Source of the DNA: Escherichia coli
Lineage (GTDB): Bacteria > Pseudomonadota > Gammaproteobacteria > Enterobacterales > Enterobacteriaceae
Reading direction: 5' to 3' (one strand)
DNA length: 64,000 nt
NCBI RefSeq assembly: GCF_044324875.1
Contig: NZ_CP172185.1
Within the stretch, counting starts at the first letter, position 1; each line of letters begins with the position of its first letter. This document shows positions 8,018 through 39,948 of the stretch, piece by piece. The notes beneath the pieces are model-generated. The model was not told the DNA's origin, did not search any database, and was given only the letters and a program-made list of their open reading frames with translations. Position numbers and translations under genes: made by a program.

Positions 8018-10165
8018 ATGAAAAAAGTCGTCACGGTTTGCCCCTATTGCGCATCAGGTTGCAAAATCAACCTGGTCGTCGATAACGGCAAAATCGTCCG
8101 GGCGGAGGCAGCGCAGGGGAAAACCAACCAGGGTACCCTGTGTCTGAAGGGTTATTATGGCTGGGATTTCATTAACGATACCCAGATCCTGACCCCGCGC
8201 CTGAAAACCCCCATGATCCGTCGCCAGCGTGGCGGCAAACTCGAACCTGTTTCCTGGGATGAGGCACTGAATTACGTTGCCGAGCGCCTGAGCGCCATCA
8301 AAGAGAAGTACGGTCCGGATGCCATCCAGACGACCGGCTCCTCGCGTGGTACGGGTAACGAAACCAACTATGTAATGCAAAAATTTGCGCGCGCCGTTAT
8401 TGGTACCAATAACGTTGACTGCTGCGCTCGTGTCTGACACGGCCCATCGGTTGCAGGTCTGCACCAATCGGTCGGTAATGGCGCAATGAGCAATGCTATT
8501 AACGAAATTGATAATACCGATTTAGTGTTCGTTTTCGGGTACAACCCGGCGGATTCCCACCCAATCGTGGCGAATCACGTAATTAACGCTAAACGTAACG
8601 GGGCGAAAATTATCGTCTGCGATCCGCGCAAAATTGAAACCGCGCGCATTGCGGACATGCACATTGCACTGAAAAACGGCTCGAACATCGCGCTGTTGAA
8701 TGCGATGGGCCATGTCATTATTGAAGAAAATCTGTACGACAAAGCGTTCGTCGCTTCCCGCACAGAAGGCTTTGAAGAGTATCGTAAAATCGTTGAAGGC
8801 TACACGCCGGAGTCGGTTGAAGATATCACCGGCGTCAGCGCCAGTGAGATTCGTCAGGCGGCGCGGATGTATGCCCAGGCGAAAAGCGCCGCCATCCTGT
8901 GGGGCATGGGTGTAACCCAGTTCTACCAGGGCGTGGAAACCGTGCGTTCTCTGACCAGCCTCGCGATGCTGACTGGTAACCTCGGTAAGCCGCATGCGGG
9001 TGTAAACCCGGTTCGTGGTCAGAACAACGTGCAGGGTGCCTGCGATATGGGCGCGCTGCCGGATACGTATCCGGGATACCAGTACGTGAAAGATCCGGCT
9101 AACCGCGAGAAATTCGCCAAAGCCTGGGGCGTGGAAAGCCTGCCAGCGCATACCGGCTATCGCATCAGCGAGCTGCCGCACCGCGCAGCGCATGGCGAAG
9201 TGCGTGCCGCGTACATTATGGGCGAAGATCCGCTGCAAACTGACGCGGAGCTGTCGGCAGTACGTAAAGCCTTTGAAGATCTGGAACTGGTTATCGTTCA
9301 GGACATCTTTATGACCAAAACCGCGTCGGCGGCGGATGTTATTTTACCGTCAACGTCGTGGGGCGAGCATGAAGGCGTGTTTACTGCGGCTGACCGTGGT
9401 TTCCAGCGTTTCTTCAAAGCAGTTGAACCGAAATGGGATCTGAAAACGGACTGGCAAATCATCAGTGAAATTGCCACTCGTATGGGTTATCCGATGCACT
9501 ACAACAACACCCAGGAGATCTGGGATGAGTTGCGTCATCTGTGCCCGGATTTCTACGGTGCGACTTACGAAAAAATGGGCGAACTGGGCTTCATTCAGTG
9601 GCCTTGCCGCGATACTTCAGATGCCGATCAGGGGACTTCTTATCTGTTTAAAGAGAAGTTTGATACCCCGAACGGTCTGGCGCAGTTCTTCACCTGCGAC
9701 TGGGTAGCGCCAATCGACAAACTCACCGACGAGTATCCGATGGTACTGTCAACGGTGCGTGAAGTTGGTCACTACTCTTGCCGTTCGATGACCGGTAACT
9801 GTGCGGCACTGGCGGCGCTGGCTGATGAACCTGGCTACGCACAAATCAATACCGAAGACGCCAAACGTCTGGGTATTGAAGATGAGGCATTGGTTTGGGT
9901 GCACTCGCGTAAAGGCAAAATTATCACCCGTGCGCAGGTCAGCGATCGTCCGAACAAAGGGGCGATTTACATGACCTACCAGTGGTGGATTGGTGCCTGT
10001 AACGAGCTGGTTACCGAAAACTTAAGCCCGATTACGAAAACGCCGGAATACAAATACTGCGCCGTGCGCGTCGAGCCGATCGCCGATCAGCGCGCCGCCG
10101 AGCAGTACGTGATTGACGAGTACAACAAGTTGAAAACTCGCCTGCGCGAAGCGGCACTGGCGTAA
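8018..10165 (+). CDS. fdhF: Formate dehydrogenase H, selenocysteine-containing molybdoenzyme; UGA at 8435-8437 decoded as Sec
   Basis: ORFs 8018..8437 and 8486..10165 are in the same frame, separated only by an in-frame TGA; N-terminal Fe-S cysteine cluster (CPYCASGCK...CLKG); the joined product is the right length for FdhF. Confidence 0.92.
8438..8480 (+). other. SECIS stem-loop directing selenocysteine insertion at the fdhF UGA
   Basis: Sequence immediately 3' of the UGA (cacggcccatcggttgcaggtctgcaccaatcggtcggtaatggc) can form the hairpin expected for the fdhF SECIS. Confidence 0.75.
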
Positions 10166-28774: not shown

Positions 28775-28915
28775 AAAGCATCAACACCAACCGGAACCTC
28801 CACCACGTGCTCGAATGAGGTGTGTTGACGTCGGGGGAAACCCTCCTGTGTACCAGCGGGATAGAGAGAAAGACAAAGACCGGAAAACAAACTAAAGCGC
28901 CCTTGTGGCGCTTTA
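28775..28915 (+). ncRNA. ryjA: Candidate small RNA convergent with soxR (RyjA-like)
   Basis: From memory, K-12 has the sRNA RyjA in the soxR-yjcD intergenic region. TACAAT -10-like element near 28766; the transcript would end at the shared hairpin. Strand and ends are uncertain. Confidence 0.3.
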
Positions 28916-28920
28916 GTTTT
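28891..28920. terminator. Bidirectional terminator hairpin overlapping the soxR stop codon
   Basis: Perfect 11-bp inverted repeat actaaagcgcc-cttgt-ggcgctttagt with T runs on both strands. Confidence 0.7.
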
Positions 28921-29377
28921 GTTCATCTTCCAGCAAGCGTGCGCCGGTACCTTCTTCTCCTAAGCGGTCGCCCGGGTTACGCAATGGGCAATCACTGCGC
29001 GAAAGGCAGCCACAACCAATACATCCGTCCAGCTCGTCACGCAGCGCCACTAAGGTATGAATGCGCCGATCCAACTCTTCTCGCCATTGGGACGAAAGCT
29101 GTTTCCACTCTTTCGCACTTAATGTATGCCCTTCGGGCAACACGCCAAATGCTTCACGAATGGTCGCCAGCGGAATGCCAATACGCTGAGCAATTTTGAT
29201 GATTGCGACATATCGCAACACATCACGTTTATATCGCCGCTGATTGCCACTATTACGGATACTGCTAATCAACCCTTTGCTTTCATAGAAATGCAGCGCC
29301 GATACCGCCACACCGCTGCGTTTTGCCACTTCGCCGGGGGTTAGCAGCGCTTTAATGCGGGGTAATTTCTTTTCCAT
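28913..29377 (-). CDS. soxR: Redox-sensing MerR-family regulator with 2Fe-2S cluster
   Basis: 154 aa; C-terminal [12 protein letters not shown] cysteine cluster. Confidence 0.95.
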
Positions 29378-29388
29378 AAATCGCTTTA

Positions 29389-29406
29389 CCTCAAGTTAAC
29401 TTGAGG
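29389..29406. promoter_or_regulatory. SoxR operator in the soxS promoter
   Basis: Perfect palindrome CCTCAAGTTAACTTGAGG between divergent soxR and soxS. Confidence 0.7.
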
Positions 29407-29462
29407 AATTATACTCCCCAACAGATGAATTAACGAACTGAACACTGAAAAGAGGCAGATTT

Positions 29463-29786
29463 ATGTCCCATCAGAAAATTATTCAGGATCTTATCGCATG
29501 GATTGACGAGCATATTGACCAGCCGCTTAACATTGATGTCGTCGCAAAAAAATCAGGCTATTCAAAGTGGTACTTACAGCGGATGTTCCGCACGGTGACG
29601 CATCAGACACTTGGTGATTACATTCGCCAACGCCGCCTGTTACTGGCCGCCGTTGAGTTGCGCACCACCGAGCGTCCGATTTTTGATATCGCAATGGACC
29701 TGGGTTATGTCTCGCAGCAGACCTTCTCCCGCGTTTTCCGTCGGCAGTTTGATCGCACTCCCAGCGATTATCGCCACCGCCTGTAG
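29463..29786 (+). CDS. soxS: AraC-family superoxide-response activator
   Basis: 107-aa ORF (MSHQKIIQDLIAWIDEH...). Confidence 0.95.
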   Translation: MSHQKIIQDLIAWIDEHIDQPLNIDVVAKKSGYSKWYLQRMFRTVTHQTLGDYIRQRRLLLAAVELRTTERPIFDIAMDLGYVSQQTFSRVFRRQFDRTPSDYRHRL

Positions 29787-29788
29787 TT

Positions 29789-31384
29789 TTATTGCCCGCG
29801 CGTTAACTCCCGCGCGGGTAATTGCTCCATCCATTGCATAAACACCTGCGGCGGCATCGCCTTCGCAAAGAACCATCCCTGGCAATAGCGCACGCCGCGT
29901 TTGCGCAGCCAGTTAACCTGTTCCTCAGTTTCGACGCCTTCAGCGATCGTTTTTAACCCCAGACTGTGCGCCAGCTCGATGATGTGTTCCGCAATCAAAT
30001 GACTGGTTTTATGGGTGGTCAGCGTCTCAACAAACGATTTATCGATTTTCAAAATATCGACATTCAATGATTTAAGGTTATGCAAGTTAGAGTAGCCAAT
30101 ACCAAAATCATCAATTGCCACTTCGTAACCAGCCTGGCGGAAAGCCAGAATAATCGGCGTCATTTTGTCGACATCAAGAAATGCATGTTCAGTCACTTCA
30201 AATTTAATTTGCTGCGGACGCACCGCATATTGCTCTGTTTTCTGGTTGGTTCGCGCTATCAACCGTGACGTATGAAAATCGGAGGCCGACAGGTTAATAG
30301 AAACATAGCGATCGACATGTGTTGCCAGGTACACGCCCAGATCGCGGAAGACATTATCAATAACATAATCAGTTATCTGTTCGATCATCCCCTCCTTTTC
30401 TGCCAGCGGAATAAACTCTGCCGGATTCATTACTTGCCCCTGCTCACCAGGCCAACGTATCAATGCTTCAGCGCCGGTACATTTTTCTGTTTTGATATCG
30501 ATTATTGGCTGGTAATAAAGGCAAAGTTGATGTTTTTCGAGGGCGCGTTGCAATTTGCGTTTGGGAGACAAATAGTTTTGTCGAATACGTAGCCAGAGTA
30601 ATAACAGAACAAGACTCCCCAAAATACCGGCGGGTAACGCAAAAATAAGATGATTATAAAAATGCGCTATAAGACGTTGATATGAAGTCGCAACAATGGC
30701 TGCAATCGGGCGTTTTGTCGAATAAACTGTCGCATATAAATAGCCATTTCTTTGTACGGTTAAATCATTCAAATGAATCAGCGGAGAAAACGTTGCTGCC
30801 GAGGCCTCGTTGCTTAACGAGAAAAAGGTTTTTGTCACCGTATCATACACACCCCATTGCAATGTCGGATCATCGGACATCACTTCACTCCAGAAGAGAG
30901 GGTTGATAACCGCCACATAATTTCCCCGCTGCATATAGGTCATTTTATAGCCAGAGAAAAAAGGCGTATCGCGGTAATAATAGATAGAAACGTTAGGTTC
31001 ACGCTTATAATCGGCCGGTGCAATCGTATAGCCGTTTACAGGCGCTATCAGCGATGAGCATAAAAAATGGTTATCACGGGCATAGATCAATTCATTAATA
31101 TAAAGATAGCCACGAATAATATTCAACATTCGCTTTTGATGGGCTGGAGTGCAAACTTGCCCCTGATAGCGTTCAGCAGCATCGCTCACTAAATCTGCCT
31201 GGCGAATGACCAGCTCGGATTTATCCAGCGCCAGCTGAGCAAAAGTTTGGAGCTGGCTATTCACTTCTGATTTTGCCCAAAGGAAGGCAATCCATAGCGA
31301 CAGAATGATGGGAAAGAGAACTAAAAAGATAATGCCCGGCAACGCCAGTAATTGGTGTCGTGCACGATGACTCATTGCTATCAA
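29789..31384 (-). CDS. pdeC: c-di-GMP phosphodiesterase with CSS sensor and EAL domain
   Basis: 531 aa; N-terminal TM and periplasmic domain, C-terminal EAL domain (EALIRW); the K-12 yjcC locus. Confidence 0.9.
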
Positions 31385-37833: not shown

Positions 37834-38337
37834 ATGAATATATCATATGTGAATAGCAACAAAATGACATCTTTACCTGTTGAGCTAGATGCACTAAATA
37901 ATAAAGATATCTCTTATTCCAAAGATTTTTCTTATGCCAAAGATCTCTTTTTATATATAGAAACACAGTTAAAAATTGCAAAAGATTTTTGTAGACCAGG
38001 AGAGGAAGTATCAAGATCTATTGCAAATAAAGTTTTTCATGCATTTATTGATTTAGTTAACAAAATCAGAGGCAAGAAAGATTGTATGTATATTTGCACA
38101 CTTTGCTGTTTTGCCGAGGAGGTTAAAGGTGATTATTCTCATTACAGAACCTTTTTATTTGATATTGGTAATCAATATAAGGTTAAACTTACACAAAGCG
38201 GAAAAAAAGAGTTCTCTTTAACATTAGAATTTAACGATACTATAATTGAATCTCAGAAAGTCACAGGCAATAAGGCAAAGCATATTCTTGAGGATATAGA
38301 AATATTCTATCGTAACAAACCCGATACTTATTATTAA
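37834..38337 (+). CDS. Hypothetical protein, AT-rich orphan gene
   Basis: ORF 37795..38337; the ATG at 37834 follows a GGAG Shine-Dalgarno (ggagatgatgatATG). No motif I recognise; AT-rich codon usage unlike its neighbours. Confidence 0.5.
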   Translation: MNISYVNSNKMTSLPVELDALNNKDISYSKDFSYAKDLFLYIETQLKIAKDFCRPGEEVSRSIANKVFHAFIDLVNKIRGKKDCMYICTLCCFAEEVKGDYSHYRTFLFDIGNQYKVKLTQSGKKEFSLTLEFNDTIIESQKVTGNKAKHILEDIEIFYRNKPDTYY

Positions 38338-38558
38338 ATTTAATAATGGTTAGATGTGCAGAAATTATTACTCCACACGGTAAAACAGGGAAAAGCACTC
38401 CAGAACATTGGGATAAACTTAACAAGTTAGAACTAACAACGTTTTATTACCTCTCACGTAGAACGATGGCATCAAAAAAATCATCTATAAAGCAAGAGTG
38501 AAAGCGACGACAGTTTAATTTCACTGCAGGCTGGATAACTCCAGCCTGCTTTCCTGCA

Positions 38559-39752
38559 TTACATCACCGCAGCAAACGCCTTTGCCACACGTTGTACATT
38601 TGCCGTATTTAACCCGGCGACACACATGCGACCGCTGGCGATGAGATAGACACCAAATTCTTCACGTAGTCGGTCAACCTGAGCGGCACTTAAACCGGTA
38701 TAACTGAACATGCCGCGCTGATTAAGCAGATAATCGAAATTGCGTTCTGGCATCTCTGTGCTTAATACCTTCACCAGTTCCTGACGCATTGCCAGAATGC
38801 GAGTACGCATCTCTTCTACTTCCGCCAGCCAGCTGGCTTTCAATGCCTCGTCATTCAGCACTGCAGCCACCACCTGCGCACCAAAATTCGGCGGGCTGGA
38901 GTAGTTGCGGCGAACTGTTGCTTTCAATTGCCCCAGTACGCGGCCTGCAGCTTCGGCATCTTCACACAGAACAGAAAGTCCGCCAACGCGCTCGCCGTAA
39001 AGGGAGAAAATTTTCGAGAACGAATTGCTCACCAGAGCGGGTAATCCAGCGCTGGCAATGGCGCGAATGGCGTAGGCATCCTCTTCCATACCGGCACCAA
39101 ATCCTTGATAGGCAATATCAAGAAATGGGATAAGCTCGCGGGCTTTGAGAATTTCAATCACCGCATCCCACTGGTTATTAGTGAGATCGGCACCCGTTGG
39201 GTTGTGGCAACATGGGTGGAGCAACACAATACTGCGGGCAGGTAATGTTTTTAGCGTCGCCAACAGGTCATTAAAGCGCACGCCGTTAGTCGCTTCGTCA
39301 TACCAGGGGTAAGTACTCACTTCGAATCCAGCCCCGGCGAATATTGCTACGTGGTTTTCCCAGGTAGGATCGCTGACCCAGACGCCTGATTCCGGGAAGT
39401 AGCGTTTCAGGAAATCTGCGCCCACTTTCAATGCCCCTGAGCCGCCAAGGGTTTGAATGGTTGCTACGCGCTGTTGTTGCAGTACCGGATGGTCCGCACC
39501 AAACAGCAGCGGCGCAATGGCATGGCGATAGCTGTTAAGCCCTTCCATCGGTAAATAAAGCGAAGCGCCATGAGGCTGCGCATTCAGGCGCGCTTCCGCA
39601 TCCGCCACGGCTTTCAGTTGGGGAATAATTCCGTCTTCGTTGTAGTACAGACCGATACTTAAATTCACTTTGTCGCTGCGAGGGTCTTCTTTGAAACGCT
39701 CCATAAGCGTAAGAATCGGGTCGCCAGCGTAGGCGTCAACTTTTTGAAACAC
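38559..39752 (-). CDS. tyrB: Aromatic-amino-acid aminotransferase
   Basis: Matches TyrB throughout ([16 protein letters not shown]...); the protein aligns from a GTG codon 14 codons inside ORF 38559..39794, whose first codon reads TTG. Confidence 0.93.
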
Positions 39753-39948
39753 GCGATGGTTCTCCAGGTTTACGGGCAGGTGGTTAAAACACAATAAACC
39801 GGAAGAAGGCGAAGATCGAGTGGATGTTCAGGGGCGAACGGCAATTAGCAACAGAGTGAGACTCATGACAAACGTACATCCGCCAGAGGCACGGCCTTCA
39901 TAAGAGCATGAAAGAATATCAACTTATTGAATTGGTAGGATTTTATTG

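Follow-up and report, generated by a model that had tools for sequence, protein, structure and literature searches.

Promoters governed by MerR-family regulators have a common architecture. In the mer operon of Tn501 (MerR), and likewise in the CueR-copA, ZntR-zntA and BmrR-bmr systems, the regulator binds a dyad operator located within an over-long spacer of 19 bp. The operator is bound in both states of the protein, activation proceeds by kinking and untwisting of the DNA, and the gene for the regulator is divergent and autorepressed. SoxR has these traits as well, autorepression being reported for it. It differs from MerR, CueR, ZntR and BmrR in the sequence of its half-site and in its signal, which is the one-electron oxidation of a [2Fe-2S] cluster, whereas the other four respond when a metal or a drug binds. 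In the DNA complexes of MerR-family regulators, that of SoxR included (2ZHG), there is a kink of about 90 degrees at the dyad centre (PMC9909328).

The sequence 5'-CCTCAAGTTAACTTGAGG has been given as "the E. coli SoxR box", with the SoxR dimer seated on the dyad in the interval from the -35 to the -10 element of soxS, where the reduced protein represses and the oxidized protein activates (PMC4411124). The soxS promoter is described as one with a spacer of 19 nt that SoxR activates by untwisting (PMC9303308, PMC9909328), and the same spacer length, with activation through spacer distortion, is given elsewhere (PMC8867992). The terminal cytosines of the -35 element participate in SoxR binding (PMC9067924). 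Outside the enteric bacteria, mfsA-soxR of S. maltophilia and SoxR-regulon promoters of Streptomyces, such as those of sav_7218 and sco7008, exhibit the same CCTCAAG and CTTGAGG arms, the 19-bp spacer and the overlap with the -35 element. In these organisms SoxR drives effector genes directly, with no soxS and with a different 4-bp centre, whereas the enteric loci have soxS, a second regulator, as target and TTAA as centre (12 of 12 loci).

The SoxR box of the soxR-soxS control region

We analyzed a stretch of 64 kb of Escherichia coli DNA (the window), which contains the divergent genes soxR and soxS. A preliminary description had proposed that a perfect 18-bp SoxR operator palindrome lies in an 85-bp divergent promoter region between these genes, where it would overlap the soxS promoter spacer. 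The palindrome and the region are both as described. CCTCAAGTTAACTTGAGG is a perfect inverted repeat of 9+9 bases with zero gap between the arms, and the 85 bp are the entire intergenic gap, bordered on one side by the start codon of soxR (CAT on the plus strand, 29375-29377) and on the other by the ATG of soxS at 29463 (Table 1). The 18-mer is present as a single copy in the window, even if three mismatches are allowed, and shuffled controls contain on average 0.02 matches to it per window.

The proposed location within the soxS spacer was examined with a hexamer scan that allowed spacers of 15-21 bp. The top promoter of the plus strand is TTTACC, 19 bp, TATACT, a sigma-70 promoter in which the palindrome provides 16 of the 19 spacer bases together with the CC of the -35 element. 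This spacing, together with identity at 18 of 18 positions to the box quoted in PMC4411124, supports the assignment. A box that runs across the spacer and into the 3' end of the -35 element is the layout of MerR-family promoters activated via DNA distortion. A standard scan, limited to spacers of 16-18 bp, returned no promoter in 28850-29850, as expected with a 19-bp spacer. The predicted soxS start, near 29422, falls downstream of the palindrome. Rows for soxS and soxR are absent from the Cappable-seq supplements, and in the literature retrieved by our search for in vivo binding data (ChIP-exo) SoxR is mentioned in passing.

Table 1 Features of the soxR-soxS locus (window coordinates)
Feature	Position	Strand	Remarks
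soxR	28913-29377	-	154 aa, [2Fe-2S] MerR-family redox sensor
soxS	29463-29786	+	107 aa, AraC-family activator of the superoxide regulon
soxR-soxS divergent control region	29378-29462		exactly 85 bp, the whole intergenic gap
SoxR operator (SoxR box) CCTCAAGTTAACTTGAGG	29389-29406		dyad centre between 29397 and 29398
Invariant block CTTTACCTCAAGTTAACTTGAGGAATTATACT	29384-29415		32 nt; -35, box and both -10 elements
soxS promoter -35, TTTACC	29385-29390	+	4/6 to TTGACA; final CC = box bases 1-2
soxS promoter spacer	29391-29409	+	19 bp, 2 bp above the 17-bp optimum
soxS promoter -10, TATACT	29410-29415	+	5/6 to TATAAT
Predicted soxS transcription start	29421-29423	+	about 7 nt past the -10; from hexamer geometry
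soxS Shine-Dalgarno-like AAGAGG	29450-29455	+	7 nt ahead of the ATG; putative, from sequence
Candidate soxR -10, TATAAT (perfect)	29408-29413	-	4-bp overlap with the soxS -10
Candidate soxR -35, TCGTTA	29431-29436	-	3/6 match, weak; 17 bp upstream of TATAAT
Predicted soxR transcription start	29400-29402	-	inside the box, about 29401; from the position of TATAAT
GAGG in the soxR-proximal box arm	29389-29392	-	11 nt before the soxR ATG

Comparison with K-12 MG1655 reveals that the 85-bp gap is equal base for base. At the K-12 soxRS locus (b4062-b4063) the box, the -35 and -10 elements, the 19-bp spacer and the SoxS protein are all identical to those of the window, and the gene order pdeC-soxS-soxR-ghxP is alike. 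The two loci differ in SoxR (T38S and G74R) and in about 2% of the flanking coding DNA, with no difference in the operator. The feature is thus already known, a textbook SoxR site, among the best characterized of bacterial operators, arranged as in K-12, and an ordinary finding that is useful solely as a control; an operator that is the same as in K-12 throughout raises no new question. The same DNA has been put to practical use: the soxS promoter fragment (the 85 bp plus ATG) drives GFP in an oxygen-inducible reporter plasmid (PMC4234026), and the primer given in that paper contains exactly window positions 29378-29465.

The borders of the gap carry an inverted repeat of their own. The 8-nt sequences CATAAATC and GATTTATG, at 29375-29382 and 29458-29465, extend across the two start codons, such that soxR and soxS open with mirror-image sequences. 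This repeat is not conserved across the other Enterobacterales in an alignment of 13 intergenic regions, and it is probably a coincidence.

The candidate soxR promoter and a possible second role of the box

The candidate -10 element of soxR, TATAAT without a mismatch on the minus strand, overlaps that of soxS and predicts a soxR start within the box; the candidate -35 element that accompanies it is weak. The bound dimer would cover this predicted start, and therefore a single site would both activate soxS and repress soxR, a dual function that we infer from the position of the soxR -10 element. SoxR is indeed said, in the title of a 1998 paper by Hidalgo et al., to act from a single site as activator and auto-repressor. 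Overlapping elements in PsoxR and PsoxS have been described, with PsoxR reported as repressed by SoxR, and an engineered unidirectional PsoxR failed to reproduce the SoxR-dependent repression (PMC9067924). A parallel to the start predicted here is found in S. maltophilia, for which the mapped soxR promoter has its start within the box, the latter covering positions -4 to +14 of soxR (PMC4411124). The TATAAT falls within the invariant block of 32 nt described below. The ACGA of the candidate -35 element is common to the nine sequences nearest to the window (the window to L085) and is missing from the four most distant ones.

Inspection of the sequence indicates that the GAGG of the box arm nearer to soxR is the sole Shine-Dalgarno-like element in the predicted short leader of soxR. 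Box and soxR ATG are 11-12 nt apart in 11 of the 12 further enteric loci, the twelfth (L103) being unscored. It is conceivable, and we offer this as a tentative idea that is rather unlikely to be right, that the GAGG arm may double as Shine-Dalgarno sequence for a soxR mRNA with a short leader and a start inside the box. If so, the same 18 bp would be half-site, transcription start and ribosome-binding site at once, and the role of GAGG would help to explain both the fixed block and the constant distance of 11-12 nt to the ATG across the Enterobacterales. On the opposite side of the gap, the putative Shine-Dalgarno region of soxS is purine-rich in most enteric loci of the alignment.

The flanking genes

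Both genes exceed the curated cut-offs of their family models. SoxR scores 247.6 bits with the NCBIfam equivalog model TIGR01950 (cut-off 116.9), and SoxS scores 228 bits with NF007584, likewise an equivalog model (cut-off 174). The match of SoxR to PDB chain 2zhg_A is full length (E = 1.3e-99), as is that to 2zhh. The cysteine cluster is present, with the C-terminal CX2CXCX5C motif of the [2Fe-2S] center, and the scores of SoxR with the CueR, ZntR and MerR models are far under their cut-offs. The gene for the cognate regulator is thus divergently adjacent to the box and soxS lies downstream of the regulated promoter, which is the two-stage arrangement of the enteric bacteria.

Relative to K-12, 12 of the 465 nt of soxR and 7 of the 324 nt of soxS are changed. 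The SoxS proteins are identical, and the two substitutions of SoxR are at codons 38 and 74. Papers that mention SoxR with T38S and/or G74R concern, to judge by their titles, mostly fluoroquinolone- or carbapenem-resistant E. coli. At its 3' end soxR overlaps by 8 nt with the convergent small RNA SraL/RyjA (window 28780-28920, plus strand; 153.3 bits with Rfam RF01408, for which the gathering score is 39), which is identical to K-12 ryjA at 141 of 141 nt. A terminator-like hairpin at 28889-28919 is the SraL/RyjA terminator.

Conservation within E. coli

A stretch of 901 bp around the site is present in 5,425 of the 5,426 complete genomes of E. coli, where it is annotated with soxR, soxS and pdeC; the window is accordingly E. 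coli chromosome. Complete genomes with a match to the 85-bp gap number 5,420, and 5,380 of them have it in identical form (at this length, identity of at least 99% amounts to identical sequence). By the same threshold of at least 99%, the 901-bp stretch with its genes is matched in just 634 genomes. The 34-nt core (29383-29416) was matched in 5,401 of the 5,426 genomes, with identity of at least 99% in 5,400.

Some departures from this uniformity are seen. In about 19 E. coli genomes the intergenic region is present and an exact 28-nt word within the 34-nt core is missing; these genomes may have operator or promoter mutations. Three soxRS matches sit on records classed as plasmids. In MS 69-1 (NZ_CP146675.1) the match is limited to the final 120 bases of the 901-bp stretch, where an "AraC family transcriptional regulator" is annotated. 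E. coli E138 (L122; NZ_AP022351.1, 1734-2500) has a 767-bp copy of IS1X4, flanked by a 9-bp target duplication, GAGGAATTA, at the site that corresponds to window positions 29403-29411. The element lies between the SoxR box, which is intact, and the -10 of soxS; it parts the -35 element and box from the -10, and disrupts the TATAAT proposed as the soxR -10. As judged from this arrangement, the natural insertion should uncouple soxS from SoxR.

Conservation across species

The intergenic regions of 13 Enterobacterales, the window included, were aligned (identity of SoxR to that of the window, 67-100%). The 32 columns of CTTTACCTCAAGTTAACTTGAGGAATTATACT are invariant, the soxS -10 element TATACT among them, and outside them the gap differs among the loci in sequence and in length.

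A scan for CCTCAAG-N4-CTTGAGG, with each species represented by one genome, gave at least 121 boxes in at least 120 stretches. Among the matches listed, 27 of the 121 boxes have a SoxR homologue (33-99% identity) no more than 100 bp away. These loci belong to Enterobacterales, Vibrio, alphaproteobacteria and actinobacteria, and loci of the S. maltophilia and Streptomyces type were recovered as well. As the loci were picked by exact half-sites, their arms are conserved by design of the scan, and the independent evidence that they provide is confined to adjacency, orientation, flanks and the 4-bp centre. The gene on the box side is divergent from soxR in all 27 listed loci, and in all 27 the box is directly preceded by TT(G/T)A, giving a -35 element TT(G/T)ACC that overlaps the box. 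A -10-like hexamer, beginning with TA or CA, follows 19 bp on in most of the 27, though in four only 2 of 6 bases agree with TATAAT. The centre of the box is TTAA in 12 of 12 enteric loci, and 14 different centres occur among the 27 listed.

The boxes with no adjacent soxR number 94 among the matches listed. TTGA stands on exactly one side of 55 of them, against about 1.6% by chance. These one-sided boxes are, among the matches listed, mostly from actinomycetes, and fit promoters of a direct SoxR regulon.

Other palindromes of the window

The window contains four perfect 18-bp palindromes, where 0.185 are expected from 200 mononucleotide shuffles. Beside the SoxR box, GTTATTGGTACCAATAAC occurs at 8396-8413 within a reading frame of 715 codons (8018-10165), in whose neighbourhood a related genome annotates fdhF. 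This frame contains an in-frame TGA (8435-8437), 22 nt downstream of the palindrome, which is presumably a selenocysteine codon because of the fdhF annotation. The palindrome itself is probably a coding coincidence. GCCGGATGATCATCCGGC, at 57000-57017, is preceded by AAA and followed by TTTTTT. It sits between the convergent reading frames 54392-56875 (plus strand) and 57030-57902 (minus strand), plsB and ubiA by the gene order of a related genome, and looks like an ordinary bidirectional intrinsic terminator. The SoxR box was itself considered for this class and rejected, having neither a terminator-like site nor a T-run. The last of the four, the AT-only ATTATTAAATTTAATAAT at 38330-38347, lies downstream of a tyrB-like reading frame (38559-39794, minus strand) and adjoins a region annotated in a related genome as a partial hypothetical pseudogene.

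Alternative explanations

Could the palindrome be the operator of another regulator, either SoxS itself (a marbox or soxbox) or a different MerR paralogue? Negative autoregulation of soxS by SoxS is reported, and further E. coli proteins of the MerR family use dyads in promoter spacers. Marboxes, however, are asymmetric 19-20-mers and no perfect palindromes. A search for the marbox consensus AYnGCACnnWnnRYYAAAY with up to three mismatches found none in 29378-29462, in a scan that is non-discriminating (111 matches in the window against 141 expected). In 15 of the 27 cross-species loci listed, the box accompanies a SoxR homologue and there is no soxS. In the literature, moreover, the 18-mer is given to SoxR (PMC4411124, PMC8867992). 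We regard a regulator other than SoxR as highly improbable at this site.

The dyad symmetry would also permit a stem of 7 bp with a TTAA loop, and the palindrome could in principle act not as an operator bound by protein but as an RNA hairpin (a terminator, an attenuator or a processing site) or a cruciform in the DNA. The terminator scan is empty at 29389-29406, however, and no T-run follows the palindrome on either strand. Given that soxS is predicted to start downstream of the palindrome and soxR inside it, neither predicted mRNA would contain both arms. The variety of centres between retained arms, furthermore, fits two half-sites contacted by protein. A structure formed by the nucleic acid itself is accordingly very hard to sustain as the function of the palindrome.

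That the palindrome arose by chance in AT-rich intergenic DNA and is functionless is effectively refuted by the statistics and the cross-species register: at least one of the other three perfect palindromes of the window (that at 8396, in the fdhF frame) is probably incidental, but the shuffles yield far too few matches and palindromes, the block is invariant in 13 sequences where the neighbouring intergenic DNA diverges, and the half-sites recur beside soxR in the 27 listed loci in constant register with a -35 element.

Mechanism and significance

On the evidence of sequence, the palindrome is almost certainly the single operator of the SoxR homodimer in the 19-bp spacer of the sigma-70 promoter of soxS, redox-switched and probably also repressing soxR. 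SoxR would occupy it in both redox states, as is established for the identical K-12 sequence. With SoxR reduced, the two extra base pairs of the spacer would keep the -35 and -10 elements out of phase, and soxS would be nearly silent. Oxidation or nitrosylation of the clusters would alter the dimer, such that the dyad centre becomes kinked and untwisted. The -35 and -10 elements would then be realigned for RNA polymerase, the promoter would open and soxS would be turned on, after which SoxS would switch on the regulon for superoxide and multidrug resistance. The same bound dimer would cover the predicted start of the divergent soxR promoter.

Synthetic biology makes wide use of the soxS switch as a redox-inducible promoter. 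In the organism, the response of soxRS to superoxide and redox-active drugs is switched at this site, a response that feeds multidrug resistance mediated by AcrAB-TolC.
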